Part shown: positions 28,503-62,043 of the stretch, piece by piece
Layout: each line of letters opens with the position of its first letter
Position numbering within the stretch: the stretch's first letter is position 1
Origin: Parcubacteria group bacterium GW2011_GWC2_48_17
GTDB taxonomy: Bacteria; Patescibacteriota; Minisyncoccia; Phycocordibacterales; UBA10002
DNA length: 64,000 nt
Reading direction: 5' to 3'
Assembly (NCBI GenBank): GCA_001003605.1
Contig: LCPL01000001.1
Coordinates: forward strand, 7,976-71,975
Made by a program: the position numbers and the translations under genes
The notes under the pieces: model-generated
Told to the model about the DNA's origin: nothing
The model's database searches: none
What the model saw: the letters and a program-made list of their open reading frames with translations, nothing else

Positions 28503-29027
28503 ATGTTCTCCGACCCCTCACAATGCATTGAACAATTTGACCTCCAAAGCGGCTCGCGCGTGGCCGACCTTGGCGCGGGCACCGGCGCGTTCGCGATTGC
28601 CGCTGCAAAAGCGGTGGGCGAGGCCGGCAAGATTTACGCCGTAGAAGTACAGAAGGGCCTTTTGGAGCGGCTCAAAAGCGAGGCCCGCGCGGCGCGCGCG
28701 CATAATGTGGAGGCGCTGTGGGGAGACATTGAACGCGTGCAGGGTACACACCTCAAAGACGCCTCCATTGACGCCGCCGTTGCGTCAAATGTGCTGTTTC
28801 AGGTTGAAGATAAAAACGGTTTTGTAACGGAAACGAAACGTATATTAAAACCAGGCGGCAAAGCGCTTCTCATAGACTGGACGGATTCTTGGAATGGTAT
28901 GGGTCCGCACAAGACCCAGGTAGTCACCGAAAACGCCGCTCGCGAGCTTTTTGAAAAGGCCGGCTTTCAGTTCGTAAAGAAAATCGACGCCGGAGAGCAC
29001 CACTATGGGTTAGTATTTAGAAAGTAG
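28503..29027 (+). CDS. Class I SAM-dependent methyltransferase
   Basis: VADLGAGTGAFAI (motif I) ... KPGGKALLIDW (post-I/II). Confidence 0.6.
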   Translation: MFSDPSQCIEQFDLQSGSRVADLGAGTGAFAIAAAKAVGEAGKIYAVEVQKGLLERLKSEARAARAHNVEALWGDIERVQGTHLKDASIDAAVASNVLFQVEDKNGFVTETKRILKPGGKALLIDWTDSWNGMGPHKTQVVTENAARELFEKAGFQFVKKIDAGEHHYGLVFRK

Positions 29028-29050
29028 AGGGTAGGTGGTAGAAAAAGACA

Positions 29051-29401
29051 ATGAAGGAATGGAATTACAAGAATCTTATTGTGTGGCAGAAGGCAATTGA
29101 TGTGGCCGTAAAAGTCTATCGTCTCACTGACACTTTCCCCAAAAACGAACAATACGGACTGATGTCTCAAATTCGCAGAGTAGCGTCCTCAATTTCAGCA
29201 AATATCGCGGAAGGTAGTCGGAGAAAAGGACCGAAAGACAGAGTCCATTTTTTTGTCATGGCGTATGGTTCTGGGGCTGAATTAGAATCCCACTTGGAAT
29301 TAGCTAAGCGTCTTTCGTTAGTATCTGAAGAGTCCCTAAAAGAAATGCCGGCGCTTTTAGACGAGGTGATGAAAATGTTAAACCGTCTCACCAGTGTATA
29401 A
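29051..29401 (+). CDS. Four-helix-bundle protein (23S rRNA intervening-sequence protein family, the same family as DGR Avd), copy 1
   Basis: KNLIVWQKAIDVAVKVYRLTDTFPKNEQYGLMSQIRRVASSISANIAEG...GSGAELESHLELAKRL is the canonical family signature. Confidence 0.75.
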   Translation: MKEWNYKNLIVWQKAIDVAVKVYRLTDTFPKNEQYGLMSQIRRVASSISANIAEGSRRKGPKDRVHFFVMAYGSGAELESHLELAKRLSLVSEESLKEMPALLDEVMKMLNRLTSV

Positions 29402-29476
29402 TTTTTAACCTGCTTGGGTTATACTTGAGTCGTTTCTCTTGCTACCTTCTACCCTCTACTTTCTACCTTCTAAACC

Positions 29477-30736
29477 ATGAATTCCTTCCAAATCATCGTC
29501 CTCGGTATCTTCGCCTTCTTCATTGTCGCCGGACTCGCGGCAATATCCCTCGTCAAGCAAAACGCCGGAGCGGAAGTCATATCGCTCACGATGTGGGGAA
29601 GCGTTGATAAAGACTTGGTTGAGAGTATCATCGGTAGCACCGTAAACAGCGAAACGCTCAAGGTTTCCTACAGGGAGATTCCGGAATGGTCGCTTGATAA
29701 AGAGATTGTAGAGGCGCTTGCGGTGCGTCGCGGTCCCGATATGCTTCTCCTGCCGCTTCCGCTTCTCACTCGCTACAAAGACAAACTGTTAGTAATCCCA
29801 TACAGCACTTATCCGGAACGCACATTCAAGGACACATTTATGCAGGAAGGAGACCTTTTCTTATCAAAGAATGGCATAATCGCTTTCCCTTTTTTACTTG
29901 ACCCGATGGTCATGTATTTCAATCGGGATTTGCTTGATGAAGTGAAAAAGCCCCAGGCGCCGAGATTTTGGGATGAATTTATCTCGCTCGCAAGGGACCT
30001 TACTTTGCGCGATGAGTATGGCAATATCTCGCGCAGCGCCGTCGCACTGGGCGAATATCGGAATATAAACCACGCGCGCGAGATTCTGGCGACGCTTTTT
30101 ATGCAGAGCGGAAACCCCATCGTCGCCAAAGGAGATTCCGTAAATAAGGTTACGCTGGACAAAAGTGGCACCTCTCCAGTGCTAGATTTTTACACTGAAT
30201 TCGCGAATCCGCAGAAACCCGTATATTCTTGGAATCGCTCGCTTCCGAGCGCGAGAAGCGCGTTTCTAGCCGCGAACCTAGCAATATACTTCGGTTTTGG
30301 GAGCGAATATGATGGACTGCGCAAAGGGAATCCCAATCTTGATTTTGATATCGCGCCATTTCCGAGGCCCCGAGACGCGAGTATCGCCATCACCTATGGC
30401 AAGCTCACTGGAGTGTCAATTCTCCGTACGGCTTCCAATACTGGAGTGGCCCTTCAAGTCGCTCTAACGCTCGTTAGTCCGAGGGCTCTAAACATACTTC
30501 GCTCCAAAACCGGGTTCCCGCCAGTTCATAGAGGTCTTCTTACTGCAAAGCCGACGGATGCTTTTGGAGCCGTTATGTACGATTCCGCTTTCATGGCGCG
30601 CGGATTTATTGACCCAAACCCGGCAGTATCCGCGGGAATATTCAGGAACATGATAGAATCGGTTACAAGCGGCAGAGCGCGGAGCAAAGAGGCGCTCCAA
30701 AAGGCGAATACGGAAATGAAAGAAGCGTTCCGGTAG
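29477..30736 (+). CDS. Membrane-anchored extracellular solute-binding protein (ABC-transporter substrate-binding family, tentative)
   Basis: N-terminal TM anchor. MalE-like substrate-binding-protein features (LTMWGS..., DMLLL, ...). Confidence 0.4.
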   Translation: MNSFQIIVLGIFAFFIVAGLAAISLVKQNAGAEVISLTMWGSVDKDLVESIIGSTVNSETLKVSYREIPEWSLDKEIVEALAVRRGPDMLLLPLPLLTRYKDKLLVIPYSTYPERTFKDTFMQEGDLFLSKNGIIAFPFLLDPMVMYFNRDLLDEVKKPQAPRFWDEFISLARDLTLRDEYGNISRSAVALGEYRNINHAREILATLFMQSGNPIVAKGDSVNKVTLDKSGTSPVLDFYTEFANPQKPVYSWNRSLPSARSAFLAANLAIYFGFGSEYDGLRKGNPNLDFDIAPFPRPRDASIAITYGKLTGVSILRTASNTGVALQVALTLVSPRALNILRSKTGFPPVHRGLLTAKPTDAFGAVMYDSAFMARGFIDPNPAVSAGIFRNMIESVTSGRARSKEALQKANTEMKEAFR

Positions 30737-30842
30737 AGACAAATACCAATCTGCAAATGTATACCAATTTTCCAATACCTGCGAATAAGAGTTAAGAATC
30801 CGAATTGGTAGGTATTTGTAGATTGGAATGGATTAGTTATCA

Positions 30843-31415: not shown

Positions 31416-31420
31416 GAAAT

Positions 31421-31562
31421 CGGGGAGAACATGACACCCAAAGCACAGTGTCCAAAAACCCAAACAAAGCACAGTGTGTCAAAAAAACAAACAAGTCCGG
31501 TTTGTGTTTTGAAAGTTTGTGCAGTTTGTTTGGGCTTTGTGTACTGTGCTTTGGTAAGTTTA
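31421..31562. repeat. Long imperfect palindrome, CA-rich arm / TG-rich arm (~60-nt arms). Second copy at 54775-54915.
   Basis: The left arm cccaaagcacagtgtccaaaaacccaaacaaagcacagtg... is almost G-free. The right arm ...cagtttgtttgggctttgtgtactgtgctttgg is its approximate reverse complement. Copy 2 shares caaagcacagtacacaaag...ccggtttg.... Confidence 0.5.
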
Positions 31563-31584
31563 AAACAGGTAATTAAGCCAACTT

Positions 31585-32007
31585 ATGTCTTTCATTGAAA
31601 AAGTGTGCCATTCGTTTAGCAAAGTACCACAAATGGCAGTGCATCTGGGCTGGGGCGCTTTTCTCATGCTCTTTCTCACGCCGCAATCAGCCTTTGCGAC
31701 ACCATGTCCCGAAGGAAGACTCTGCAATCCCATCAACTTTCCCAATCTTACCGCGTTCCTGCTTGAAATTGTAAATATAGCAATCCAGTACGGCGCGCTC
31801 CTTATCGTATTTTTCATCGTCTTCGCCGGTTTTAAATTCGTTACGGCGCAAGGGAACAGCGAGAAGGTGAGTGAGGCGAGAAAAATGTTTACGTGGATTG
31901 TTGTCGGCGCCTTCGTGCTTCTTGGCGTCTATGTGATTAAGGCCGCCATCTGCGGCTCCATAGAACAGCTTGGGGTCACGAACGCGTGCGGATTGACTTC
32001 GCAATGA
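31585..32007 (+). CDS. Secreted two-TM pilin-like protein, paralog 2
   Basis: ...ALLIVFFIVFAGFKFVTAQGNSEKVSEARKMFTWIVVGAFVLLGVYVI... is the same helix / charged-loop / helix core. Confidence 0.45.
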   Translation: MSFIEKVCHSFSKVPQMAVHLGWGAFLMLFLTPQSAFATPCPEGRLCNPINFPNLTAFLLEIVNIAIQYGALLIVFFIVFAGFKFVTAQGNSEKVSEARKMFTWIVVGAFVLLGVYVIKAAICGSIEQLGVTNACGLTSQ

Positions 32008-32026
32008 AAGCAGTACTTAGTAGTTA

Positions 32027-32182
32027 GTAGTAGAGGACTTACGCGGTTGACTGAATTCTCCCTTAATAAAGGGAGCACTGCCGCCTTCGGCAGGAGGGAT
32101 GTTACAACCCCCGCCTCGCCGACTCGGCACCCCCTTTACTAAGGGGGACACACTTCGACCGGATTCCAAACGCGTAAGTCCT
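32027..32182. mobile_element. MITE-like element, copy B (TIR AGGACTTACGCG), with a hairpin-rich interior
   Basis: aggacttacgcg at 32027 and cgcgtaagtcct at 32171-32182. The interior has ctcccttaataaagggag and cccccctttactaaggggg stem-loops, and is related to 37640-37870. Confidence 0.5.
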
Positions 32183-32209
32183 AAGTAGTAGATTAATAGA
32201 CAAAGCAAA

Positions 32210-32593
32210 TTGATGAAAACTATAAGCCACAAAACAAATAGATTTTCTTTGCTACCCTCTACCTTCTACCTTCTACCATCTGCTTTCTTCTACCTTCTAC
32301 CTTCTGTTTCCCTTGCCAACGACTCCATCAAAATCTTTGATACTCCCAATAAGCTCACGTTCACAGACCTCGCGGGGCGGCTTGCAGGCGTTGGGAATAC
32401 AATCATAACCTTTCTCGTCGGCGTTGCTCTCGTTCTTTTGATTTGGGGCGCTTTCAAGTACATCCGTGCCGCCGGCGACTCGGAAAAGCTTGCCGAGGGA
32501 CGTCGAGTGGCCGTCTATGGCATCATTGCCTTGTTTCTAATGCTTTCTTTCTGGGGATTTGTTATGATTATCAAGAAGAGCTTGTTCGGGTAA
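32210..32593 (+). CDS. Secreted two-TM pilin-like protein, paralog 3. Its N-terminal hydrophobic region is encoded by CTACCTTC repeats.
   Basis: ...TFLVGVALVLLIWGAFKYIRAAGDSEKLAEGRRVAVYGIIALFLMLSFWGFVMII. There is no in-frame alternative start downstream of the repeat region. Confidence 0.45.
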   Translation: MMKTISHKTNRFSLLPSTFYLLPSAFFYLLPSVSLANDSIKIFDTPNKLTFTDLAGRLAGVGNTIITFLVGVALVLLIWGAFKYIRAAGDSEKLAEGRRVAVYGIIALFLMLSFWGFVMIIKKSLFG

Positions 32594-32659
32594 TACCAAT
32601 CTGCGAATGTGAACCAATCTACGAATACCTGCTAATAAAACCTACTAATAAACACGCCA

Positions 32660-33130: not shown

Positions 33131-33178
33131 ATACCAATATACGAATGGGAACCAATCTACGAATACCTGCGAATAAGA

Positions 33179-33312
33179 TAGGACTTACGCATTTCGTCAT
33201 TTTCTGTCATTCCCGCGCAGGCGGGAATCCATGCCTTGAAATAACACTCTGGATTCCCGTTCCCCGCCTTCGCGAGGACAAGCTTCACGGGAATGACACC
33301 AAATACGACTTT
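33179..33312. mobile_element. MITE-like element, copy C (left TIR TAGGACTTACGC, degenerate right end)
   Basis: taggacttacgcattt at 33179. The interior has gtcattcccgcgcaggcgggaatcc and ctggattcccg cores homologous to copy A. The ORF-track ORF 33145..33339 is the translation of this repeat. Confidence 0.45.
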
Positions 33313-33335
33313 TTAGAAGCTAATTTCTTAACCTC

Positions 33336-33905: not shown

Positions 33906-33924
33906 TTATGAGTGTACCGCCACT

Positions 33925-34281: not shown

Positions 34282-34338
34282 AGAATAGCTGCTAGCTGTT
34301 AGGTGCTAGGTTCTAGGAAGGAAAAAGAAAAGAAATAG

Positions 34339-34638
34339 ATGCATGAAAGCCGAAAACTAACCGCTTCTGCCCTGCCTTTGACCGATAACGCCACTAATGC
34401 TAGCATAAGAACCATGAATACAATCGTTTTGAAAACAGCTGAATATCAAGAACTAAAGACCCGCGCTGATGCATACGATAGGTTGGTATTTGCCGTGCGT
34501 GAAGAGATTTTTTCGCCACCTCCGACCCGAAACCGCGCCAAGATTATTTCTGAATTAAAAAAGACAAAACGCTATAACAATAAATTTCTTGAGAGTCTCG
34601 CTCGCGGTTTGAAGCGTTCGTCGTATTTCACCTCATAG
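34339..34638 (+). CDS. Putative antitoxin partner of the RelE/ParE toxin (assigned by position only)
   Basis: 99-aa ORF ending 8 nt before the RelE-like toxin gene. No motif recognised. Confidence 0.35.
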   Translation: MHESRKLTASALPLTDNATNASIRTMNTIVLKTAEYQELKTRADAYDRLVFAVREEIFSPPPTRNRAKIISELKKTKRYNNKFLESLARGLKRSSYFTS

Positions 34639-34645
34639 ATTTTCC

Positions 34646-34894
34646 ATGAAAATACTCCCGCTTCATTCGGAAATCGTCCGGTATATTAAAGCGCGAGGTT
34701 TGCTAAAACGGTTTGAAAAGCAGTCAAGACTTTTCGTCGCTAATTTAAATCATCCGAGTCTTGAAATGGGATTGCTTGAACCAAGGCATTTGCGCATTTT
34801 TAGTTTTCGCCTCAACCGGAAGTACCGAGCGATTTTCATTTTTCAAGACAGGGAGACGATTGAGGTGATTGATATCAATAATCACTACCAATAA
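34646..34894 (+). CDS. RelE/ParE-family type II toxin
   Basis: ...HPSLEMGLLEPRHLRIFSFRLNRKYRAIFIFQDRETIEVIDINNHY matches the RelE/ParE C-terminal pattern (HP.L....L.....s.R+...YR.i....+..i.v..I..H). Confidence 0.6.
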   Translation: MKILPLHSEIVRYIKARGLLKRFEKQSRLFVANLNHPSLEMGLLEPRHLRIFSFRLNRKYRAIFIFQDRETIEVIDINNHYQ

Positions 34895-35025
34895 GAAGAA
34901 TAGCTGCTGGCTGTCCGGCGCTAGGTTCTAGCCGGATAAAGGAGAGGAAGATAGCTTCTAGCTGCTAGGTTCTAGCTTTTAGGAAAGAAATCGAAAAACA
35001 ACTTCTAGATAAGCGCCACACATGT

Positions 35026-35394
35026 ATGACTATCACAAAATCCTACAAAGACCTGATTGTGTGGCAAAAAGGAGTTGAACTTTCCGTGCTTGTATATGAA
35101 CTGACTGAAAAGTTTCCCAATGAAGAGAGATATGCGCTTACTTCACAAATGAGACGAGCTGCCGTTTCCATTCCATCAAATATAGCCGAAGGGCGTTGTA
35201 GAAGTACAAAAAAGGATTTTTGCCAGTTTCTGCATATTGCCCTCGGTTCTGCGGCAGAGCTTGAAACACAAATAGAAATTGCAAAGCGAATATCAAAGAC
35301 CTCCAATATCTCATATACAACCATAGAAGCCCTGCTTACCGAAGTTATGAAAATGCTCAATGCTCTTATCTCCAAACTAGAAGCCAATGCCTGA
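35026..35394 (+). CDS. Four-helix-bundle protein (IVS/Avd family), copy 2
   Basis: KDLIVWQKGVELSVLVYELTEKFPNEERYALTSQMRRAAVSIPSNIAEG...LGSAAELETQIEIAKRI. Confidence 0.75.
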   Translation: MTITKSYKDLIVWQKGVELSVLVYELTEKFPNEERYALTSQMRRAAVSIPSNIAEGRCRSTKKDFCQFLHIALGSAAELETQIEIAKRISKTSNISYTTIEALLTEVMKMLNALISKLEANA

Positions 35395-35563
35395 CAGCGC
35401 CAGCACCTTCTCTCGATTCTGCTTCTTCTAGAACCTAGCAGCTAACACCTATCCCTTGCTATCCACACCCCCCCCTTGCGCGTGCGGGAATATAGGATAG
35501 AATAGTGCGTATTAATAGGATTTTCCAAATAGGTCGTATTACTAATTATTTTATAAGTGCTTT

Positions 35564-37535: not shown

Positions 37536-37893
37536 GCAGTCGAATAGGTTTTGAGTGTTTCGATTGGCTGGTTTTTACCAGCAGAGGACTTTTCTCTGTT
37601 TCGACTCTACCACGGCATCACAATCGCGTCCAACATTAAAGGGTAATCACCGATACTCCCATCTTCTTCCGGAATTCTCCCTTACCAAAGGGAGTACCGA
37701 ATTCTGATTCGGGGAGGGTTGTTGCGGGTAAGCTATTTGTTAAGGGGGAAACAACCCCCGCTCCGAAGACGGAGCATCCCTTCACTAAGGGAAAGACAAC
37801 CCCCACCTCGCAGACTCGGCACCCCCTTTGTTTCCGCCAAAGGACGGATCCGCCTCTGGAGGAAAGGGGGATTGGAGAGTGTGAGAATTGACT

Positions 37894-37935: not shown

Positions 37936-37992
37936 TTTGTATTTTGGAATTTGTGATTTGTTTAGAGTTTAGAGTTTCGAATTTAGAGTTTC

Positions 37993-39237
37993 TTACACTA
38001 CGTGGTCTCTCTCTTCTTCCTCCGTATCTTCCTTGGAGCGTTTTCTAAGCGCCATGAAGATGCCGAAGATGATGAGCAGAATCGCACCGATGCCCCATCC
38101 TATAGGACCGCTCACTCGCGAGAAGATTGTTCCGGCTGAAAGCCCATTTTTTTGCTTTGTGATTTCTACCGGATAACACGCCACGGTTTTCGCTTTGTCT
38201 CCCGACACTACCGTTACGGAGGCACGCTTCCCGCCGGTTTTTTCGTACGCCTTTGATGTGGTCGCGCCTTCCCCGGAAAGCGCCTCATCGCCAAACCACG
38301 AAAATCTATATTCTCCCATACCCCCTATGGCAACCGCGTGCCAGACCATCGCGCTCCCTTGCTCCGCTTTCGCTGAAGAGGGAATACACAAGGCCTGAAC
38401 CGGCAGGGCCGCTGTCTTTTCTTTTCCATTAGGAGAAGAGACTGGCGGAGGTACTGCGGGCTTTGAAGGAGTTGTCGGGGTTTGGGCGCCGACGGTTACG
38501 AAGTTTGTGCACGAAACCGCTATGCGATTCTTTCCATCCGCAACCGTAAGCACCGCGAATTTACTCCCGGCGCTCGTGTATGATTTAGAAACAATCGGCC
38601 GCTCGCCTGTGAGTCCTTCCGCGCCATCCCACGAGTAGGTGGTGGATGCAGTAGTGCCCGAAACTATGGAAAGCCACGTTACGCTTTCTCCGAGAACTGC
38701 TTTTTCAGGTGTTGCGTAACAAGAAGCGCCGAGCCCTCCCGCCTGTCCATAATGGAATTGGCCGCCACCGGAATCTGCTCCAATGAGCGTTCCGCCGCAA
38801 GAAACCGTTATCTGTTTAGTGCCCGACGTAACTGTAAGAATGCCAAATTTTTCTCCCATGGTCGCGTATGTCTTAGATACGGCGCTTGTGTTGCCAGACA
38901 AGCCGTCGGTTCCGCTCCACGAGTAAAGATATGTTCCTTGGCCGCCGGAAACGGAAGAGAACCATGTAATTGTCTGCCCGACACCGCTTCTCAAGGTTGA
39001 TGGAGCGCAAGAAACAGAAAGTCCGCCGGCAGTACCCGGTCTGCCTCCAGAAGAAGAGTCGTATTCCGAAAACGACAGGGTGGGCATGAGGTACAGTGCC
39101 CCCGTCCGGGCATTTCTTTCAAATCGAGGGCTGTCACTTTGCGCGTTAATCGCTGAAATGGGCAAGAAGAGTCCTATAGCTAGGGAAATGACAAAAATCG
39201 GTTGTATTAGTGTGTTGATTGTCGTTTTATTTTTCAT
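37993..39237 (-). CDS. Cell-surface protein with three ~90-aa Ig/PKD-like repeats and a C-terminal TM anchor
   Basis: Signal peptide. Repeats share SC.P....G...TW...VSGG.G.Y.YSW.G.DGLSG.....SK.Y...G.K.....V.SG.K...VSC. C-terminal TM GIGAILLIIFGIFMAL + RKRSK. Confidence 0.5.
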   Translation of the reverse strand: MKNKTTINTLIQPIFVISLAIGLFLPISAINAQSDSPRFERNARTGALYLMPTLSFSEYDSSSGGRPGTAGGLSVSCAPSTLRSGVGQTITWFSSVSGGQGTYLYSWSGTDGLSGNTSAVSKTYATMGEKFGILTVTSGTKQITVSCGGTLIGADSGGGQFHYGQAGGLGASCYATPEKAVLGESVTWLSIVSGTTASTTYSWDGAEGLTGERPIVSKSYTSAGSKFAVLTVADGKNRIAVSCTNFVTVGAQTPTTPSKPAVPPPVSSPNGKEKTAALPVQALCIPSSAKAEQGSAMVWHAVAIGGMGEYRFSWFGDEALSGEGATTSKAYEKTGGKRASVTVVSGDKAKTVACYPVEITKQKNGLSAGTIFSRVSGPIGWGIGAILLIIFGIFMALRKRSKEDTEEEERDHVV

Positions 39238-42607: not shown

Positions 42608-43069
42608 AGTATGCCTTTCCAGACCCCAGCGTTTTAGGCCGAGTCTTGTTGTTGATTGCCTGCCCCGTGGTCATCCGCTTTTGAGCGGATTACTTTACGG
42701 GGCTTAGTTGTCAAAGGGCGGAAACCGCCTTTTTGTACAACGGTTTAACTGGCCGCAATGCTAGCACATTTCCTCCTGCCTGTCAACTTTCTCGGCAGCT
42801 AGTTCAACAATGAAATGCAACGCTCATTTAGCACGATAGCCACGGCCGTGACTCTCATGCTAAACAGGACCTCACCGGTTCAAATTCCATATTTACCCAG
42901 CACCTTGAACGCCCTGCGGTCAAGGTGCTGGGTTTATTGTGTCATCCCACACTTTTCAGAAAAAGTGTGGGATTGCGGCACTACGAACGCCGCTCATGCG
43001 AATACCCTGCGCTCCTGCGCAGGGTACGTTCTGTGCGACCCACAGGGTTAATGCCCTGTGGTGTCGCTC

Positions 43070-43495: not shown

Positions 43496-43937
43496 ATTTG
43501 TATTCGCTTATTCTTCGCTTCAGGTATTCCTCCCTAAGCCTGAACAGCGGTTCCGCCTCTTCATATGTCCTTAAGGCATACAAGAGCATATCGTCAAACA
43601 GGTGCGGGGTTTTTTCGTATAACACTTTTGCGTTTTGAACAATTTGCTTCAGAAGCAACGGCGGGGCTTTTCTGAAATTAACCGTGGAGACCTTGTCGTT
43701 TTTAAACACTTCAGTCAAATCAGTGTTTAACGACACCTCATCCTCAAACGACATCTTGTTTTCTGACAAAAACGCCACATCAACATCACTTTCTTTGTGC
43801 GTAAATCCGGTTGCCTGCGAGCCGAATAGCACCACAAGGGAGAAGTGATAGCGTACGGCGATTTCCGCAATTCTATTTTTGTCTATCTTTATCATGCGCT
43901 TACTATACCATAAAAATGTTCGACAGGCGATTATCAC
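43485..43937 (-). CDS. MntA-like minimal nucleotidyltransferase (antitoxin partner of HepT)
   Basis: LFGSQATGFTHKESDVDVAFL is the GSx9-13DxD nucleotidyltransferase motif. Confidence 0.55.
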   Translation of the reverse strand: MIIACRTFLWYSKRMIKIDKNRIAEIAVRYHFSLVVLFGSQATGFTHKESDVDVAFLSENKMSFEDEVSLNTDLTEVFKNDKVSTVNFRKAPPLLLKQIVQNAKVLYEKTPHLFDDMLLYALRTYEEAEPLFRLREEYLKRRISEYKYVG

Positions 43938-44076
43938 TTCTCAATTCATACTTCATAATTCATTCTGCTATGCTATAGTGCTAGAATGTTGAGTTGCTAG
44001 GTGTCAGCTGTCAGGTTCTAGTCGGAATCTTTTCTTTTTTACTAAACGCTATACGCTAACCGCTAACCGCTTCCCT

Positions 44077-45090: not shown

Positions 45091-45199
45091 AATAGCAGGT
45101 AGATGATAGAAAGTAGAAGGTCAAAATAGATTGTAGAAGGTAGATGGTAGAAGGTAAGAAGAAACAGTCTACTAGCTACTTTCTACCAACTAATTTTTT

Positions 45200-45865: not shown

Positions 45866-46038
45866 ACAAGGCGGTATGGTATTATATTGTGAAATATCGG
45901 ATACCAATGCAAAATAAATCTCGAATACCAAATATCGAATATCTAAAAATACCAAATACCAAATGTTAAAACAGAGGAAATCTCAAATTGTGGTTTCTTG
46001 TTTCGGTATTCGGTATTCGGGATTAGATATTTAATCGT

Positions 46039-46590: not shown

Positions 46591-46694
46591 GAAACTTGAA
46601 ATTTCTACCATTGACCTTTGACCATTAACAATTGACAGACTTCTTTTTAACGTCACATGTCACATGTCAATTGTCACCTGTTAATTGTTGATTT

Positions 46695-47810
46695 ATGACT
46701 CTAGTTTTATTTCTCATCATTCTCGGTGCGCTCATCTTCGTGCATGAGCTCGGACACTTTATCTCCGCGAAAAAAGCCGGAATTCGCGTTGATGAATTCG
46801 CGCTTGGATTTCCGCCGAGGGTACTTGGAAAGAAAATAGGAGAGACAGAGTACAACCTCAATCTCATTCCATTTGGAGGATATGTGAAAATCTTTGGCGA
46901 AGACGGCGACGAAGACGCAGATAAACGCGGATTAGGAACGCAGATAAGCGCGGATAAAGAAAGACGCTTCACCTCAAAACCTCGGTGGGTGCAGGGAATA
47001 GTCCTTGCTTCCGGCGTCCTCGGCAATATAGTTTTCGCGTGGCTACTTGTGTCGATAGGCTTCATGTCGGGTGTTCCATCGGCAATCAACGGGCGATACG
47101 CCGCTGACGTGCGAAATCTCGAGCTTATGGTCACTTCAGTACTCCCGGACTCTCCGGCTTATACAGCAGGGCTTCATTCCGGCGATGTAATCACAGCAAT
47201 CGAGGAAAACGGTAATCGATTTGAAGGCACCGATGCGACAGTGGCAGGAAACTTTATCGGCGCCAGTACGGATAAGCTATCCGTCTTTTACAAACGCGGA
47301 AAAGAAGCTGGAAGCGTAGTCGTACTGCCGAAAGATGGAATTGTGGAGGGGAAACACGCCATAGGGGTTGGCCTAGACACTATAGGTGAAGTGCGCTTCG
47401 GCTTTTTCCGAGCTTTTTTTGAAGGAGCTCTAATGACATGGGACATTACTCGCGAAGTCACTGTGGGCCTAGTCGGATTTTTGAAACAAGCCGTCACTTT
47501 GCAAGCGGACTTAAATTCCATTACCGGCCCCTTGGGTATTGCGGGACTCGTTGGGGAGGCGCGCGTTTTAGGAGTCATCTATCTTCTGTCTTTCACCGCA
47601 TTTATCTCCATTAACCTCGCTGTCATCAATCTTCTGCCAATTCCGGCGCTAGACGGAGGTCGTCTTCTCTTTTTAGCGATTGAAGGCATCACCCGAAGAT
47701 CAATCCCCGCAAAGTTAACTCGAACAGTAAATACGGCCGGCTTCATACTCCTCATTCTCTTTATGGTTTTTATTACATATCGGGATATTGTGAAATTAGT
47801 TAGTAGCTAG
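46695..47810 (+). CDS. rseP: RIP site-2 zinc metalloprotease RseP-like (M50 with PDZ)
   Basis: VHELGHF (HExxH). C-terminal NLLPIPALDGG. Confidence 0.75.
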   Translation: MTLVLFLIILGALIFVHELGHFISAKKAGIRVDEFALGFPPRVLGKKIGETEYNLNLIPFGGYVKIFGEDGDEDADKRGLGTQISADKERRFTSKPRWVQGIVLASGVLGNIVFAWLLVSIGFMSGVPSAINGRYAADVRNLELMVTSVLPDSPAYTAGLHSGDVITAIEENGNRFEGTDATVAGNFIGASTDKLSVFYKRGKEAGSVVVLPKDGIVEGKHAIGVGLDTIGEVRFGFFRAFFEGALMTWDITREVTVGLVGFLKQAVTLQADLNSITGPLGIAGLVGEARVLGVIYLLSFTAFISINLAVINLLPIPALDGGRLLFLAIEGITRRSIPAKLTRTVNTAGFILLILFMVFITYRDIVKLVSS

Positions 47811-47895
47811 TAGCAAGTAGAAAGTAGAAAGTAGCGTGCTACTATTTTCTTATCCGTAATTCGTATATCGGTACTTATTTGTACTCCGTAAACCT

Positions 47896-49146: not shown

Positions 49147-49199
49147 CATTCAAAATCCTTCTTCTGTTTTTAGCAAACACTCACGGCCGTGAGTGTTTG

Positions 49200-49823
49200 C
49201 TAAAATTGGTCCAGTTTAAAGATATACTTCCAGTGCTCCTCATTATCGATATGTTCCGCAATGATGAGCCGCACATACTTCCTGATATCAAGCGCTTCAA
49301 CGATAAAATCAATTTCATTCCCGCATTCAAATGGATAGATTCCCGCGGAGTGTTGAAGTTTGCGGAATCCGAGCCTTTTCAGGTGATCTCGGAAAGCATC
49401 CCGAACCACACGCTCGTCCTCCGGGATGTCATACAAAACAATCCACCATTTTTTGCTCCAGATACCTGAATGTTTGATCTTCATATGGTACATTCGGTAG
49501 GTGAGGGAGCGTTTTTTTCCGTTTTCACTGAGTACAAGCGTGTGAGTCCCATCAGCATTCTCTTTTGCCTCGACTAGCCGAGACTCATAGAGTGCATCAA
49601 TAGCACGTTCCGCCGCCTGCCGCTTGATATCGTGCCAGTCCCCATACATATCTTTGATAATCTTCCACTGCTGTCCCGGCGAACGCGAACAGCTAAGAGC
49701 TACTCCTCCGGCGAGCAGCAGTAAGATCTTTCGCTGTACTCCTCCGAGACCCCTTTTTTGCTTTCGCAACCGTATTTTCCGATTTCTTTCCGTGGTATCC
49801 ATGCAGTCAATTTTAGCAAACAC
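49200..49823 (-). CDS. Hypothetical protein. C-terminal segment WWIVLYDIPEDERVVRDAFRDHLKRLGFRKLQHSAGIYP is Cas2/VapD-like (tentative). Flanked on both sides by TAGCA..CACGGCCGTGAG..TGCTA palindromes.
   Basis: The pattern (V.YD.......R.+....L...G.R.Q.S...) resembles Cas2-type small nucleases. The N-terminal half is not recognised. Confidence 0.3.
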   Translation of the reverse strand: MFAKIDCMDTTERNRKIRLRKQKRGLGGVQRKILLLLAGGVALSCSRSPGQQWKIIKDMYGDWHDIKRQAAERAIDALYESRLVEAKENADGTHTLVLSENGKKRSLTYRMYHMKIKHSGIWSKKWWIVLYDIPEDERVVRDAFRDHLKRLGFRKLQHSAGIYPFECGNEIDFIVEALDIRKYVRLIIAEHIDNEEHWKYIFKLDQF

Positions 49824-49939
49824 TCACTGCCGTGAGCAAATGCTAAAAAAGTGAAAGATAGTTCTTGAATACGAACATACTACTTACATTCAGAGTAGCT
49901 TTGCGTTTGGCTGTATTCGTATATAATGCGTAAACCAAC

Positions 49940-52283: not shown

Positions 52284-52414
52284 ACTTATCAAGTTTCAAT
52301 CAAATCTTTAATTTTTTTTAATCTTCAAATTTCTGGCATTGATTGAAAATTGCCTGCCCGCCGAAGGCTCGGCGTAGGCGGGTAAATTGATAATTGAAAA
52401 TTTAAAACATCCAT

Positions 52415-54133
52415 ATGCTACAAAGATTTCTTAAATTGTTTAGTTCACGTAGAGTCGCTCTGCATGGGAAGAAGGAAATCAATCCTGATGAGATATTTCT
52501 TGATTCTAGCAATCTGCCGCAGTTTGACAGGCACCAATTCGAGGGCCGCCTTGAGCGTCCTATAGCTCGCCGCACCATTTTCATTTTAGGTGGCGTATTT
52601 TGCTTGGCAATGCTTCTGGTTCTCTCAAAGACCTTTTCACTTCAAATAATGGAAGGAGACCGGTACGCAAATCAAAGCGCGCAAAATCGCCTGCGCCACA
52701 GCCTGATTTTTGGCTCGCGCGGCGTGTTCTATGACAGGAACGGAACATTACTCGCATGGAATGTCATTGATGACGCTAAACCTGAATTTTCGAAGCGCAA
52801 ATATCTGGAGCAAAATGGACTGTCGCACGTCGTAGGATTTATAAAATATCCTTCAAAGGATAAAGCAGGGTTCTATTATAAAGTTGATTTTGAAGGACTT
52901 GATGGAGCGGAAAAGTATTACAACGAATATGTCGCGCCGCAACATGGAATCAGAATCGTTGAAACAGACGCTCATGGGAATATTCAGTCGGAGAGCGTGT
53001 TAAAGCCGCCAAAAGATGGAGCAAACATTACTCTAACTATCGACGCGCGCCTTCAGAGTAAGCTTCACGAGTTAATGGAAGGTCTAGCGAAGGAACGCGG
53101 TTTCAACGGAGGCGCCGCAGTCATAATGGATGTTCAAAACGGCGAGCTTCTCACCATGGTGAGCTTTCCAGAGTACGATTCACAAGTTCTTACCGATGGT
53201 AGCGATGAAGACGCCATAAAAAAGACGCTTGCTGACCCAAAGACTCCATTCCTCAATCGAGCTACAAGCGGACTATACGCGCCAGGCTCTATCGTTAAGC
53301 CGTTCATAGCACTTGCTGCGTTGGAAGAGGGAATAATAACGCCAGAGAAGGAGATAGTAAGCACAGGCAAGATATCAGTTCCGAACCCATTCGACCCGAG
53401 CAAGCCGAGTGTTTTTAAAGATTGGAAAGCGCACGGCGCTGTTGATATGCGCAAAGCATTGGCAGTTTCATCCGACATATATTTCTACGAAATAGGCGGG
53501 GGGTTCGAAGAACAAAAAGGACTTGGTATCGGGAGCATCGAAAAGTATATGCGTCTATTCGGCTTCGGCGAGGAGCCAGGAGGAAACGATTTCTTTGGTG
53601 AAGCCGGAGTCATCCCAAATCCCAAGTGGAAACGCGCGAATTTTAACGGTGAAGCGTGGAATCTTGGCAATACCTACCATACGTCGATTGGGCAATATGG
53701 ATTTCAGGTAACTCCCTTGCAGGTGGCGCGCGGAGTTGCCGCGATTGCGAATGGCGGAAAGCTTTTAGAACCTCGGCTTGTAGAGGAAAAAGAAATTCCG
53801 CCGTCATATGCGGTGATTCCTATCAAAACTTCCTCTTTCGGGGTTGTGAAAGAAGGTATGCTTGGCGCCGTAACTTTAGGTGGCACGGCAAGTGGACTTT
53901 CCATTCCCAACATAAGCGTTGCCGGAAAGACTGGAACAGCGGAGCTAGGAACCTTAAAAAAACTAGTCAACTCATGGGTAGTGGGATTCTTTCCATATGA
54001 AAAACCTGCGTTTGCGTTTGCAATCATAATGGAAAAAGGCCCGCGTGATAACACCATAGGCGCGACTTTTGTGGCTAGGCAGCTATTCGAGTGGATGAGC
54101 GTGTATACGCCGGAATACCTGCGGAGTCAGTAA
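52415..54133 (+). CDS. mrdA: Penicillin-binding protein 2 (elongasome transpeptidase)
   Basis: SxxK (GSIVKPF), SxD/N (VSSDIYF), KTGTA. N-terminal TM. Lies in the mreBCD block. Confidence 0.75.
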   Translation: MLQRFLKLFSSRRVALHGKKEINPDEIFLDSSNLPQFDRHQFEGRLERPIARRTIFILGGVFCLAMLLVLSKTFSLQIMEGDRYANQSAQNRLRHSLIFGSRGVFYDRNGTLLAWNVIDDAKPEFSKRKYLEQNGLSHVVGFIKYPSKDKAGFYYKVDFEGLDGAEKYYNEYVAPQHGIRIVETDAHGNIQSESVLKPPKDGANITLTIDARLQSKLHELMEGLAKERGFNGGAAVIMDVQNGELLTMVSFPEYDSQVLTDGSDEDAIKKTLADPKTPFLNRATSGLYAPGSIVKPFIALAALEEGIITPEKEIVSTGKISVPNPFDPSKPSVFKDWKAHGAVDMRKALAVSSDIYFYEIGGGFEEQKGLGIGSIEKYMRLFGFGEEPGGNDFFGEAGVIPNPKWKRANFNGEAWNLGNTYHTSIGQYGFQVTPLQVARGVAAIANGGKLLEPRLVEEKEIPPSYAVIPIKTSSFGVVKEGMLGAVTLGGTASGLSIPNISVAGKTGTAELGTLKKLVNSWVVGFFPYEKPAFAFAIIMEKGPRDNTIGATFVARQLFEWMSVYTPEYLRSQ

Positions 54134-54281
54134 GTAGCAAGTAGAAAGTAGCAAGTAGCAAGCAGGCAGTATCGAATTTTCTTTTTCTACCTTCTACCCT
54201 CTACTGTCTACCTTCTGCTTGTGCGTTGACTTACTCTCAAAAACCCGCTACAATCTTGAGGTTTAGCAAATCTAACGAATA

Positions 54282-54755: not shown

Positions 54756-54774
54756 CACCAACTTCCGATTACTT

Positions 54775-54915
54775 ATCTTAAACTTCACAAAGCACAGTAC
54801 ACAAAGTCCAAACAGACTACACAAATCTCCAAAACACAAACTGAGCCGGTTTGATTTTTTGAAACACTGTGTTTTGTTTGGGTTTTTGGACATTGTGCCT
54901 TGGGTTTTGTCAGAA
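54775..54915. repeat. Second copy of the long CA-rich/TG-rich palindromic element (see 31421-31562)
   Basis: cacaaagcacagtacacaaagtccaaacag...ccggtttgattttttgaaacactgtgttttgtttggg.... The copy-1 arms match the copy-2 arms. Confidence 0.5.
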
Positions 54916-57588: not shown

Positions 57589-57911
57589 TGGGCAGTTTGA
57601 ATTCCCGCGCACCGTGGTTTCGAACAGCGTTCTGGGTACAGGCGCTGCTTTTTGTTATGCACAGGTTATCCACACGAAAATGCTATGCAGTGGGCGGAAG
57701 TGTTATAGAATATGAAACAAGTGGGATTTGGTGGGAAACATAGGAAATCCTTAACAAAAAAGAATGAAAATTGAAAAACTAATCTACAAGGTTTTTTATA
57801 AAGGAAAAAAGTTCGCACTGCCAATAACAGTCAGCGTGAATGTGTTATTGCGTGAAAAAGTCCGTGTTCATTCTTCAAGAATCCTAAATCCTAAATCCTA
57901 AATCCTTCTCC

Positions 57912-58346: not shown

Positions 58347-58434
58347 GAAGAGCAGAACAATTGACCATTAACATTTAACAATTGACCACAATGCAATAAA
58401 AGGTAGTTTCTTCGAGTCAAATGTTAATTGTCAC

Positions 58435-59409: not shown

Positions 59410-59529
59410 TTTCGAATACCAAATATCGAAAAATATCGAATTCTTAAATATTAAACTATTCGAAATTAAGATTTTTTTCGAGATTCGAAGTTGGATATTC
59501 GAGATTAAATAGGAAATATTTTACGGAAG

Positions 59530-59856
59530 ATGAAAACGATAAAGAAAAATCTGAAGCGATTTGAAAAACACGGCAAGAAGCTTTTTTGGTCTTTGGCCTG
59601 TCTTTTGCTGTTGGCTACCTCATTCTATGTATATTTAATGAATACCGCTGCGCTCAACGGCGTGCGTTGGGAAGGAGCCGAGAAGGAAATTATGTCTATC
59701 GAAGCCACAGTGTCAGAGCTTGAATCAGAGTACCTTTCTTTAAAGCAATCGGTGACTCTTTCCACGGCATATGCCATGGGGTTTGAAGATGTGAAAGCCA
59801 TTAAATTCATTTCAGCCAAGAAGGTTGGCACTGTGGCCGCAGTAAATGAAATCTAA
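59530..59856 (+). CDS. ftsL: Cell-division protein FtsL-like (single TM plus coiled coil)
   Basis: 108 aa. TM LFWSLACLLLLATSFYVYLM, then a coiled coil. Position is between rsmH and the PBP gene. Confidence 0.55.
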   Translation: MKTIKKNLKRFEKHGKKLFWSLACLLLLATSFYVYLMNTAALNGVRWEGAEKEIMSIEATVSELESEYLSLKQSVTLSTAYAMGFEDVKAIKFISAKKVGTVAAVNEI

Positions 59857-59953
59857 GAGACTGTCTGAAAAGCTATCGCAATCCAAAGCCGCGCCAGATT
59901 CGAGGAAAAAACGGTGAAGACAAGGGAGGTGTAGACCGCTACTCCGACCGAGG

Positions 59954-61714
59954 ATGAGTCGTTTTTTACCGAATCTGGCGCGGCGACGATGCGAAATGGC
60001 TTCAACAATAATTTCCATGGTAGCTTTTCAGACAGTTTCTAACCCCAAATTCTTGTTTCGCGCGCGGCTTATAAGCGTAATGTGTGTTGCCGCCGCTTTT
60101 CTTCTGCTGGCTCAATTGTATTCAGTGCAAATTGTGAACGGGAGCGAGTACTCCGAAAAAGCAGAACGGCAATACTCGCGCCCAAATCAGGAACTCTGGA
60201 GCAGAGGCTCCATTTTCTTTTCAACGCGAAGCGGCGAACTCGTATCAGCCGCCACGCTCAAAACGGGTTTTACGCTAGTTATCCGTCAGAGTGAGATAAC
60301 CGATAGAGAGGCCGTGTGGAACGCTCTTTCAAGGTATGTTGCTCTTGATAAAGATGATTTTCTTGCAAAGATGTCAAAGCGCTCTCACGGAGGTGAGGAG
60401 AGAATAGCTCGCAAACTCGGAACTGACGTCGCTCCTTTAATTGATAAGTTAGGATTGAAGGGGGTCTACTTATACAAAGAAAGATGGCGCTTTTATCCAG
60501 GCGGACGTCTTTCGGCGAATCTCTTGGGTTTCGTCGGATTCGACGGCGACATTCTCTTAGGTCAGTATGGGTTGGAGCGTTACTACAATGACACTCTATC
60601 TCGCGACTCCGGCGGCCTATACAAGAACTTTTTTGCCGAGATTTTTTCCGGCGTCAAAAAAGCTGTCGGACCTGGCCGCTCCGAAGGGGACATAGTTACC
60701 TCGATTGAACCGAGCGTGGAAAGCTTTCTTGAAAATACTCTTGCCGAGCTTCAAGAAACCTTTACCGCGAATCGCGTAGGGGGAATAATTATGGATCCTA
60801 GCACCGGTCGCATCTATGGAATGGCGCTTTCTCCGTCTTTTGACCCAAACAGTTATGGCAAGGTGGAAAGTGTTTACGAGATGGGTTCCATCATAAAGCC
60901 AATTACGATAGCAGTCGGACTTGATGCCAAGGTCATAACCGCCACCAGCACTTACTACGATGCCGGTTTTTTGACGCTAAACAATAAAACCATCTCCAAC
61001 TTTGACGGCAAAGGCCGCGGAAGAGTTTCTATGCAGGAAGTGCTTAACCAATCGCTCAATACCGGAGCTGTTACTGTCGCGCTTAAACTTGGCAAGGATA
61101 ATTTTCGCGAGTACTTTAAAAAGTTCGGACTCGGTGAGGAAACCGGGATAGACCTTCCTGCGGAAGCGGCTGGTCTTGTGAGGAACCTGGAAAGCGGCAG
61201 GGATATTGAGCTTGCCACCGCCTCATACGGCCAGGGCATCGCCCTTACTCCCATTCAAACCGTGCGCGCCCTTTCCGCGCTCGGGAACGGCGGATATCTT
61301 GTAACGCCGCATATTGTGACGGAAATAAAATATAAAACAGGCGTGCGCCGTTCCGTCGAAAGCAGCGATAGAAAACAGATTTTAAAGCCGGAAACATCAA
61401 CGGAGATTTCACGCATGCTCGTAGAGGTTGTAGACACCGCGCTTTTGCATGGCGCGTACAAAATGGAACGCCACAGCATCGCTGCCAAGACAGGGACCGC
61501 GCTTATCGCCAATCCGGACGGAGGAGGATACTATGAAGACAGATTTCTGCACTCGTTTTTCGGGTATTTCCCGGCGTATAATCCAAGCTTCATCGTCTTT
61601 CTGTATGCAGTTGAACCTAAGGGAGTAGAGTTCGCGTCAGCTTCTCTTACAGCGCCATTCATGAACATCGCGAAATTTTTGATAAACTATTACGAAATCC
61701 CACCAGACCGGTAG
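59954..61714 (+). CDS. ftsI: Penicillin-binding protein (FtsI-type transpeptidase of the dcw cluster). An internal start is possible.
   Basis: SxxK (GSIIKPI), SxN (SLNTG), KTGTA. N-terminal TM. Follows ftsL. Confidence 0.7.
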   Translation: MSRFLPNLARRRCEMASTIISMVAFQTVSNPKFLFRARLISVMCVAAAFLLLAQLYSVQIVNGSEYSEKAERQYSRPNQELWSRGSIFFSTRSGELVSAATLKTGFTLVIRQSEITDREAVWNALSRYVALDKDDFLAKMSKRSHGGEERIARKLGTDVAPLIDKLGLKGVYLYKERWRFYPGGRLSANLLGFVGFDGDILLGQYGLERYYNDTLSRDSGGLYKNFFAEIFSGVKKAVGPGRSEGDIVTSIEPSVESFLENTLAELQETFTANRVGGIIMDPSTGRIYGMALSPSFDPNSYGKVESVYEMGSIIKPITIAVGLDAKVITATSTYYDAGFLTLNNKTISNFDGKGRGRVSMQEVLNQSLNTGAVTVALKLGKDNFREYFKKFGLGEETGIDLPAEAAGLVRNLESGRDIELATASYGQGIALTPIQTVRALSALGNGGYLVTPHIVTEIKYKTGVRRSVESSDRKQILKPETSTEISRMLVEVVDTALLHGAYKMERHSIAAKTGTALIANPDGGGYYEDRFLHSFFGYFPAYNPSFIVFLYAVEPKGVEFASASLTAPFMNIAKFLINYYEIPPDR

Positions 61715-62043
61715 GGGAAGCGTTTAGTCCGCTAGCTGGCGGATAGCGTTTAGCGTTTAGTTGAAAAGTGTCACCGAATATTCCCTAAATCTCCTTTCTC
61801 TTTCTACATTCCTGTCTACGTGGGTAGCCTACTTTCTACCTACTACTCTCTGCTCACTGTGGATAAAGGTGTGGATAAGCCTATTGACAAAACACTAAAT
61901 GGATATATGGTATAACATAGTATTTGGCTCATTGGAAAACCATTCGTTCGGCCGTTCCACAAGGTCAGCAGTATCAGCATATGATGACTTTGCGGAGCGG
62001 CCGAAAACAACAAACAACAACGGTCGCCACACAGAAAGGCACC

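Follow-up and report, generated by a model that had tools for sequence, protein, structure and literature searches.

Heptanucleotide repeats are the over-represented class of long simple sequence repeats (SSRs) in many bacteria, and one proposal links the heptamer step to the footprint of DNA polymerase (Mrazek 2007, cited by PMC4679880 and PMC4692102). Tandem heptanucleotides are known, according to the same two citing papers, from Calothrix (PCC 7601) and Nostoc. As those papers portray them, such short tandemly repeated repetitive (STRR) sequences have a strict 7-nt unit repeated head to tail in about 3-10 copies, with several units per genome, a strong intergenic bias, a sporadic phylogenetic distribution and lengths that vary between close strains. 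Here we analyse the heptamer arrays of a 64,000-nt stretch of contig LCPL01000001.1 from Parcubacteria group bacterium GW2011_GWC2_48_17, referred to below as the window, which were first noticed as intergenic GTAGAAGG/CTACCTTC runs. The window arrays show all the defining traits of the heptanucleotide SSR/STRR class, strain variation through one event. They belong to this known class of microsatellites, represented in cyanobacteria, Xanthomonas and Beggiatoaceae, and are neither terminators nor similar to repetitive extragenic palindromes (REPs). What sets them apart from the STRR sequences of those sources is the host, an ultra-small member of the Candidate Phyla Radiation (CPR; Paceibacteria), and their filling of most short spacers of housekeeping operons, mostly as inverted pairs that span the spacer. 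Within an incomplete coverage of the literature, no published description of heptamer arrays in CPR bacteria was found; the phenomenon is here extended to the Paceibacteria, where the arrays take a large share of a tiny intergenic space.

Three further described systems provide a context. Direct repeats of TAACTGA occur in marine Beggiatoaceae and in some Cyanobacteria and Bacteroidetes (MacGregor 2015, PMC4679880). Like the arrays of the window, these are heptamers (2-6 copies there) that end a few nucleotides before the starts of genes without a Shine-Dalgarno (SD) motif, and the downstream genes follow no functional pattern and include essential ones (PMC4679880). In that system, however, a single unit predominates and heptamers related to it are few, whereas the window has many units and a complementary array at the other end of the spacer; no TAACTGA array is present in the window. 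The GGGAATC and GGGGA(T/C)T repeats of Xanthomonas and Nostoc carry G-tracts and have been proposed to form G-quadruplexes (Rehm et al. 2015, PMC4692102), unlike the units found here, which are without G-tracts. Finally, in Coxiella burnetii the 23S rRNA intervening sequence (IVS) has a 28-bp terminal stem that is cut by RNase III, with the S23p open reading frame (ORF) in its loop; three GACAGAT heptamers, variable in number between strains, stand before this ORF, and the RNase III site lies at the first repeat (PMC4990558).

On balance, we hold it probable that the GTAGAAG/CTACCTT runs of the window are heptanucleotide microsatellites of the STRR class that form spacer-wide imperfect hairpins and may have a role in RNA processing. 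Under this explanation, slipped-strand mispairing would create the arrays and alter their length in 7-nt steps, and a variant unit would spread within its own array, so that each spacer acquires its own unit and the units come to differ by species while the period stays at 7. The arrays would last almost only where coding constraint is absent. Between two co-directional genes, one array would come to lie directly 3' of the stop and its imperfect complement directly 5' of the next start, and the resulting stem, presumably transcribed as part of a polycistronic RNA, may be a double-stranded element of the RNase III type that serves processing or insulation. Such a role is suggested because the same architecture, inverted arrays forming a stem with an ORF in the loop, surrounds genes of the family PF05635 and matches that of the RNase III-excised 23S rRNA intervening sequences.

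Period-7 arrays and the anatomy of the spacers

A self-match scan of periods 3-14 found 27 regions at period 7, 25 at the multiple 14 and 1-8 at each other period, and a stricter setting left 13 period-7 regions versus 0-1 elsewhere. A shuffled window yields 1.5 period-7 arrays versus the 27 observed. Genes cover 84% of the window, and 23 of the 27 arrays lie in the non-coding 15.8%. At least 12 unit sequences are present, among them CTAGCTG, CCTAAAA, CTACCTT, AGTAGTT, TAGGTGC, GTTTAGA, CTAACCG, AATATCG/TTCGGTA, ACCATTG/GTCACAT, AAATTGA, AATCCTA and TAGCGTT, and nearly all arrays fall within 24-62 kb (Table 1).

Every run listed by the sequence-only reading was recovered at its place, with period 7 in Tandem Repeats Finder (TRF) throughout rather than the unit of 7-8 nt that it had proposed. 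Its expectation that the motif would exceed chance was borne out: the 8-mer CTACCTTC/GAAGGTAG occurs 15 times where 1.42 copies are expected, and none of 100 dinucleotide-preserving shuffles had more than 5. Eleven of the 15 copies lie outside genes although 84% of the window is coding, in agreement with the claimed intergenic enrichment; four of these 11 fall in a pilin signal-peptide region that was later judged coding. The inverted pairing said to permit folding is also present, if imperfect, for example between 45130-45161 and 45167-45187, where the strongest helix of 45126-45190 has 11+7 pairs, and between 54131-54169 and 54185-54221, where the region 54128-54230 has a predicted folding energy of -25 kcal/mol. 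Runs with the GTAG/CTAC core amount to 7 of the 27 period-7 arrays, a proportion which that reading had missed.

In co-directional spacers the arrays lie at one of two places, next to the stop of the upstream gene or next to the start of the downstream gene. The stop-side arrays carry TAG or TAA, and at 25155, 29025, 47808 and 54131 the gene's own stop codon lies inside the array. Three units with such a triplet stop all three reading frames; a stop triplet is present on the sense strand in 78% of units and on the antisense strand in 71%. The start-side arrays mostly read CTA/TTA. Distances of 1-21 nt separate the array end from the ATG at 25229, 29477, 34339, 44077, 45200, 46039, 46695, 52415 and 57912. 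By inspection, the leaders at these nine ATGs have no SD motif. The usual spacer contains two arrays that are imperfectly complementary, typically with one mismatch per unit. With a stop-side array and its start-side complement in place, the whole spacer can fold into one long imperfect stem.

Two side observations concern the start regions of the window more generally. By inspection, SD motifs are nearly absent from them, and a TATAAT-like box stands 10-20 nt 5' of several ATGs (e.g., 49920-49939 and 22825-22839), which suggests very short leaders.

The spacer types bear directly on the earlier proposal that the runs, placed at gene ends, are intrinsic terminators or else form a dispersed family of REP type. 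The runs are indeed intergenic, are often arranged as inverted pairs at gene ends, and a few of them precede T-runs, such as that at 45188-45199. Within a REP family the copies share one consensus of ~35 nt; REPs do not consist of tandem heptamers, and REP-associated tyrosine transposases (RAYTs) accompany them. The arrays resemble REPs and bacterial interspersed mosaic elements in being short imperfect intergenic palindromes, many per genome, but they lack a shared palindromic consensus of ~35 nt: what they have in common is the 7-nt period and not a sequence, relatives carry still other units, and no Y1/RAYT transposase is found among the called genes of the window. With regard to termination, the five convergent spacers each contain a classic terminator, a short GC-rich stem plus T-run (z -3.9 to -5.2), and none contains an array. 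The array hairpins are long, AT-rich and mismatched, not short GC-rich stems with a U-tract, and consensus scans for promoters and terminators over 43.8-62.8 kb gave chance-level counts and did not list them. Furthermore, arrays are present in the divergent spacer 43896-44076, which holds only 5' regions, and arrays abut start codons without leaving room for a promoter. The proposal, in either form, is scarcely tenable. Telomere-like repeats, footprints of transposon target-site duplications and phased -10 elements were also weighed as readings of the arrays and set aside.

Alternatively, the arrays could be periodic binding sites for an oligomeric nucleic-acid-binding protein, either a HutP/TRAP-like reader of UAG or, on the model proposed for TAACTGA repeats, S1 or a translation factor that acts on SD-less leaders. 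Each HutP site of the Bacillus subtilis hut leader has three UAG triplets with N4 spacing, and thus a period of 7 (PMC2425495). Many 5' arms of the window read UAG-N4-UAG-N4-UAG, which is the HutP motif (PMC2425495); those at 54131-54169, 47799-47838 and 45099-45161 fit one such site. Also in line with a binding array are the approximately nine arrays close to starts where SD motifs are nearly absent, a situation shared with the Beggiatoaceae (PMC4679880), and the patchy presence of arrays at the genome level, which is compatible with gain and loss of a trans-acting factor. However, the hut system has two same-strand sites about 20 nt apart in a single operon, whereas here the partner array reads CUA. 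Start-side arrays are mostly CUA in the sense strand (TAG 1/30, CTA 10/30), as a consequence of the hairpin geometry. Many units contain neither UAG nor CUA, the units differ between spacers, and no HutP or TRAP domain was found among the called window genes, so that we consider a binding array very unlikely.

One array is coding, as had been noticed from the translation of a run in the ORF beginning near 32210. The array at 32250-32309 encodes the signal-peptide region of ORF 32213-32593 (T4SS_pilin), which begins MKTISHKTNRFSLLPSTFYLLPSAFFYLLPSVSLA|ND. Its N-terminus has the charge, the hydrophobic stretch and the SLA / A-x-A-type layout seen in the signal peptides of five paralogues, and the ORF has no start codon 3' of the array. 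Gain or loss of 7 nt within 32250-32309 would shift the reading frame of a surface pilin; another array does differ by one unit between strains (TTCGGTA, described below); and in Haemophilus phase variation is driven by SSRs in 5' regions (PMC12721329). The arrays could on this basis be contingency loci, that is, slippage switches for phase variation of neighbouring genes, the array-encoded pilin signal peptide in particular. Most arrays, however, adjoin housekeeping genes (mreB, frr, aspS, PBP2, mraZ), and the pilin array is interrupted, has at most three perfect units in a row and is identical in all assemblies compared. A contingency function is therefore highly improbable.

Strain variation and turnover of units among relatives

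The window has matches in a metagenome-assembled genome from groundwater (GCA_003514705.1, contig DOPE01000037.1), and contigs of other aquifer samples are near-identical to it. One strain contig (L002) differs from the window over ~21.6 kb by 12 substitutions and a single indel, and this indel removes precisely one TTCGGTA unit, 46002-46008, from the array upstream of frr. In 10 further strain contigs, compared over 25-32 kb, array lengths are unchanged, which indicates that the slippage rate is not extreme.

For a wider comparison we used 80 PBP2 neighbourhoods of other Paceibacteria species, comprising 1.17 Mb; the nearest species-level relatives via PBP2 carry the labels Taylorbacteria, Nomurabacteria or Paceibacterota. 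Together with the window (1.23 Mb, 86% coding), the set contains 106 period-7 arrays, 89 of them non-coding, and 10-35 arrays at periods 5, 6 and 8-11. The arrays are patchy in the relatives: they are frequent in about 12 loci (L011, L030, L042, L035, L040, L070 and others), and the majority of relatives have none. One relative (L025, Paceibacterota) has period-9 arrays (AAAGTTNNT) in place of period 7, at 2895-2917, 4902-4924, 5285-5316 and 18986-19011.

The sequence-only reading had called the runs genome-specific and had asked whether close relatives share the motif. The unit itself is not shared, since a tandem CTACYYT dimer, present nine times in the window, was found nowhere in the 1.17 Mb of relatives; what some relatives do share is heptamer arrays of other units at orthologous spacers. 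The spacers upstream of mreB, frr, rseP, greA, aspS, mraZ and rsmH have arrays whose unit differs by species, and upstream of frr, for example, the unit is TTCGGTA in the window, GTTTTAT in L011, TTAGAAT in L012, TTATTTG in L030 and CTAAACC in L070. Two units are held in common at the same place, AATCCTA before mraZ in the window and L014, and AAATTGA before PBP2 in the window and L015; the PBP2 proteins of these two relatives are 73-74% identical to that of the window. Outside the clade the label does not hold. When public metagenomes were scanned for exact copies of CTACCTTCTACCTTCTACC, the tandem unit was found in at least 120 contigs, with 28-67% G+C among the matches listed; none of these listed contigs overlaps the window, and their arrays are almost exclusively of period 7, often with several units per contig. 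The CTACYYT unit is private within the sampled clade, yet it is not unique, and the phenomenon is cross-phylum. The persistence of the period across species without that of the sequence constrains explanations of the bacterial preference for 7-nt steps.

Structure is retained more widely than sequence in some spacers. The 100 nt 5' of ten orthologous genes have a mean z of -1.38 versus -0.41 for random windows, and values under -2 are reached by 33% versus 11%. In the rseP spacer, structure is present in 5/5 species despite unrelated arm sequences. Across all 137 spacer hairpins, G.U mismatches exceed A.C mismatches on the sense strand (247 vs 183, p = 0.002), an excess that is not significant among those built from arrays (below).

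A number of results weigh against the processing-hairpin explanation. The array hairpins are predicted to be moderately stable at most (z about -1 to -4), with about one arm mismatch per unit, and the fold energies of sense and antisense strands do not differ consistently. Within the 18 array hairpins the G.U versus A.C count is 48 vs 36, which is not significant (p = 0.23). The arrays upstream of mraZ, PBP2 and mreB are single and have no complementary partner. Among the relatives, array density is 0.82 per kb in co-directional, 0.53 in divergent and 0.47 in convergent spacers, values that rest on crude ORF-based gene calls across the 80 loci; the similarity of these densities means that most arrays could be functionless. 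The bias to 5' regions that is clear in the window (0 arrays in 5 convergent spacers) is weak across the 80 relatives. In addition, the strain evidence consists of a single length polymorphism among the few strains compared, and the explanation does not account for the step size of 7 nt. Given the lack of strand asymmetry, the non-significant G.U excess and the small differences in density, a role at the RNA level is one that we infer.

Some of the same results are what a purely neutral origin would produce, in which the arrays are debris of a 7-nt slippage bias and the inverted pairs arise via template switching in quasi-palindromes, with no selection. The turnover of units between species, the patchiness of the trait, the absence of a significant sense-strand G.U excess in array hairpins and the similar density in all spacer types of the relatives are all compatible with it, as are the recurrence of the same unit in unrelated organisms and the periodic arm mismatches, which are expected if the arms homogenise separately. 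Such an origin does not readily account for the AATCCTA and AAATTGA arrays kept before mraZ and PBP2 at a PBP2 identity of only 73-74%, for the rseP spacer hairpin kept in 5 species while its sequence was replaced, or for the specific nesting of PF05635 genes between complementary arrays. We take neutrality seriously as a possibility, while thinking it unlikely as the whole explanation.

PF05635 genes inside array hairpins

Two genes of the window belong to PF05635, the family of 23S rRNA intervening-sequence proteins with an Avd-like four-helix bundle, and both were unexpectedly located inside hairpins of heptamer repeats. The stem around gene 1 (29006-29049 with 29436-29476) has 32 pairs, including an 18-bp helix, and a predicted energy of -44 kcal/mol; two of the runs noticed first, 29022-29043 and 29442-29472, are its arms. 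Gene 2 is flanked by TAGCTGCTAGGTTCTAG and its perfect 17-nt complement (34959-34975 with 35428-35444). When the 65 genes of the window are ranked by flank-to-flank complementarity, the PF05635 genes come second and third, with flank energies of -43.6 and -41.0 kcal/mol versus a median of -22.1 (sd 8.5).

To these we added 18 homologues from CPR bacteria and cyanobacteria, making 20 genes (the two of the window, L025 4933-5280, L091 8741-9130, L165 1908-2267, L221-L228 and L231-L237), and most of the 18 also lie inside such hairpins. The layout recurs in L025 (with period 9), L091 and L165, in the majority of eight copies from cyanobacterial plasmids, and in six further CPR contigs, where the insertion points include T2SSF|pilin, infB|rbfA, TraC|TraG, T2SSE|T2SSF and the region 3' of secY. 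Several plasmid copies are inside cas operons, at cas6|cas4 or cas10|cmr3, and PF05635 genes are co-oriented with their operon neighbours. A perfect inverted flank match of at least 10 nt was found for 10/20 PF05635 genes versus 5.6% of 232 control genes (Mann-Whitney test of flank matches, p = 5.6e-5). In L025, two of the period-9 arrays build the stem around its PF05635 gene.

This layout shares with the 23S rRNA intervening sequences a terminal inverted-repeat stem of 20-30 bp, a PF05635 ORF in the loop and heptamers directly upstream (PMC4990558). Whereas those occupy helix 25 or 45 of the rRNA, the two cassettes of the window and the 18 others lie between protein-coding genes, and RNase III would be the candidate excision enzyme here by analogy. 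Outside rRNA, no published account of a PF05635 gene lying between arrays of this kind was found in the literature covered, which was incomplete.

Heptamer hairpins and PF05635 genes may perhaps be two parts of one system that is widespread in CPR bacteria and cyanobacteria; this is a tentative idea with some prospect of being right, and we treat the link as a lead and not as a conclusion. If it were true, IVS-like cassettes would sit in intergenic stem loops within operons and be cut from polycistronic RNA, and the cyanobacterial STRR-type repeats would be the stems, the ORF-less form or the protein substrate of such elements. It is rather improbable, in our estimate, that one hairpin-PF05635 system explains the arrays of the window, with the hairpins as landing pads or ORF-less kin of a mobile IVS-like cassette or with the protein acting on the arrays. 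Tandem arrays do flank nearly all 20 genes, usually purine-rich or TAG-type upstream with the complement downstream, and the layout spans CPR bacteria and cyanobacterial plasmids, including cas operons and infB|rbfA. Furthermore, among 72,556 plasmids nearly every tblastn match comes from cyanobacteria, the classic heptamer-repeat lineage, and the Coxiella IVS has heptamers before S23p (PMC4990558). Nevertheless, arm sequences differ at every PF05635 site, and being site-specific they are not the fixed ends of one element. ORF-less hairpin loops yielded no PF05635 remnants (tblastn, E up to 10), and PF05635 genes are absent from the 10-20 kb sampled at array-rich loci such as L011, L030 and L042. 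In one plasmid case the arrays are direct instead of inverted, and two cases are without complementarity. In the two plasmids surveyed for this purpose, arrays were not confined to the PF05635 flanks, with 2/6 arrays at the gene in Geminocystis, and the Picosynechococcus flanks are inverted repeats that do not pass a strict period-7 test.

Whatever the relation between the two, the nesting of PF05635 genes in arrays in two distant phyla, even within cas operons, gives a handle on STRR function and on the identity of the IVS protein, and the same arrangement in cultivable cyanobacteria makes experiments feasible. Many PF05635 homologues are on contigs under 2 kb; heptamer arrays probably break metagenome assemblies.

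Feature coordinates and further observations

Table 1. Heptamer arrays and PF05635 genes of the window, in window coordinates
Feature	Position	Strand	Context
Degenerate CTAC-core array	24456..24492	+	Outside the range of the sequence-only reading; just 5' of metallo-beta-lactamase-fold gene
CTAGCTG array (holds stop 25155-25157) and CCTAAAA array	25137..25231	+	Second runs into ATG 25229
GTAGAGG/GTAGGTG/GTAGAA array; 5' arm around PF05635 gene 1	29022..29043	+	Duplex region 29006-29049; first TAG (29025-29027) is the methyltransferase stop codon
PF05635 gene 1	29051..29401	+	Pfam 23S_rRNA_IVP, E=6e-37
CTACCTT array, 4.4 copies; 3' arm around PF05635 gene 1	29436..29476	+	Run 29442-29472; run near 29472 stops 4 nt short of solute-binding-protein ATG (29477)
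AGTAGTT array	32010..32033	+	3' of stop of pilin gene 31585-32007; continuation 32183-32199
CTACCTT array, 7.3 copies plus 3-nt interruption	32250..32309	+	Encodes signal-peptide hydrophobic core of T4SS-pilin ORF 32213-32593
TAGCTGC/TAGGTGC array	34285..34318	+	TRF, self-match scan
TAGCTTC/TAGCTGC/TAGGTTC array; 5' arm around PF05635 gene 2	34952..34978	+	34959-34975 pairs perfectly with 35428-35444
PF05635 gene 2	35026..35394	+	Loop between inverted arrays
CTAGAACCTAGCAGCTA; 3' arm around PF05635 gene 2	35428..35444	+	Pairing with 34959-34975
GTTTAGA array	37941..37987	+	Adjoins 3' end of minus-strand gene 37993-39237
AATTCAT array	43942..43966	+	Divergent spacer (43896-44076)
CTAAACG/CTAACCG array	44042..44076	+	Divergent spacer; runs up to mreB ATG
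GTAGAAG/GTAGATG array, 5' arm	45099..45161	+	3' of mreB stop
CTACTAG/CTACTTT/CTACC complement, 3' arm	45167..45187	+	Then T-run (45188-45199), holB-like ATG 45200
AATACCA/AATATCG array; 5' arm of holB-frr spacer hairpin	45922..45970	+	TRF, self-match, folding
TTCGGTA array; 3' arm of holB-frr spacer hairpin	45999..46027	+	Unit 46002-46008 absent in L002
ACCATTG/TTGACC array and GTCACAT array, imperfect inverted pair	46606..46677	+	5' of RseP-like gene
AGTAGCA/AGTAGAA array	47799..47843	+	Provides TAG stop (47808-47810) of RseP-like gene
AAATTGA array	52382..52408	+	Stops 7 nt before PBP2 ATG; same unit, same place in L015
AAGTAGC array, 5' arm	54131..54169	+	Begins at PBP2 TAA stop
TTCTACC array, 3' arm	54185..54221	+	Just 5' of greA promoter-like site (TTGACT-17-TACAAT, 54226-54254)
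AATCCTA array, 3.9 perfect copies	57875..57909	+	Stops 3 nt before mraZ ATG; kept in L014
TTGACCA/TTAACA array and complement GTCAAATGTTAATTGTCAC	58360..58434	+	5' of rsmH
GAATACC/AAATATC array and complement TTCGAGA array	59410..59506	+	5' of ftsL-like gene
TAGCGTT array	61737..61761	+	3' of ftsI stop; unit also in L011
Degenerate CTAC-core run with small internal hairpin	61800..61852	+	Sequence

Several other repeats are present near or between the arrays. The AGTAGTT array is cut in two by a 149-nt element (32034-32182) with AGGACTTACGC terminal inverted repeats. Elements of this kind resemble miniature inverted-repeat transposable elements: they are ~140-150 nt long, GC-rich and structured, have terminal inverted repeats AGGACTTACGC / GCGTAAGTCCT, and occur at 18973-19111 and 32034-32182, with a lone end at 33180 and a related internal sequence at 37650-37870. 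A segment of ~36 nt (AGAATAGCTGCT.GCTGT...GCTAGGTTCTAG) common to the spacers 34282-34318 and 34895-34950 is a direct duplication flanking the genes in 34339-34894. Two long hairpins in spacers, at 31416-31584 and 54756-54900, pair a 5' arm rich in CA (CAAAGCACAGTG...) with a 3' arm rich in GT and are without the heptamer period (TRF period 26), and a comparable CA-rich spacer is found in the relative L018. A separate REP-like palindrome, TTTAGCA-N7-CACGGCCGTG-N7-TGCTAAA, is unrelated to the heptamer arrays and occurs at 22370-22407, 42830-42870, 49170-49199 and 49810-49850; the last two copies flank a PaaX-like gene (49200-49802), which has the strongest flank complementarity of the window. 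A palindrome akin to it is present in L016.

The gene set of the window is typical of Paceibacteria/Parcubacteria and includes, besides the two PF05635 genes, mreB, mreC, PBP2, the mraZ-rsmH-ftsL-ftsI cluster, gyrA and a T4SS-type pilin cluster. At 60863, in the ftsI-like gene, all other population assemblies carry 33 nt (11 in-frame codons) missing from the window, which also differs at 10837-10841 from the NCBI contig (a 3-nt gap beside two N in that record); the window is thus not identical to DOPE01000037.1. A GIY-YIG gene (28185-28448) between gyrA and a methyltransferase gene is missing in strain L212, which has 141 nt (2860-3000) in place of the 379 nt at 28124-28502, and represents a presence/absence polymorphism of a homing-endonuclease-like gene.

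The first 24 kb are rich in defence-type genes (GmrSD-like, N6/N4 methyltransferase, ResIII helicase, NYN, M23 peptidase). Positions 1-24000 contain ~3.5 kb of spacer and one weak period-7 array, and positions 24001-64000 contain 6.6 kb of spacer and 22 arrays; the array-poor first part could be recently acquired DNA. A whole-window Rfam scan matched the LOOT RNA alone (RF03000, 7940-8064, plus strand; 80 bits vs a gathering score of 46), with no match for any array and no rRNA. The LOOT RNA site is a 739-nt divergent spacer at the minimum of the cumulative GC skew, at about 8 kb. Additionally, pairs of DnaA-box-like 9-mers (TTATGCACA/TTATCCACA and TGTGGATAA twice), at 57655-57674 and 61858-61878, stand upstream of mraZ and of the gene at 61981-62643, and the second pair, together with its promoter-like site, is kept in L014.

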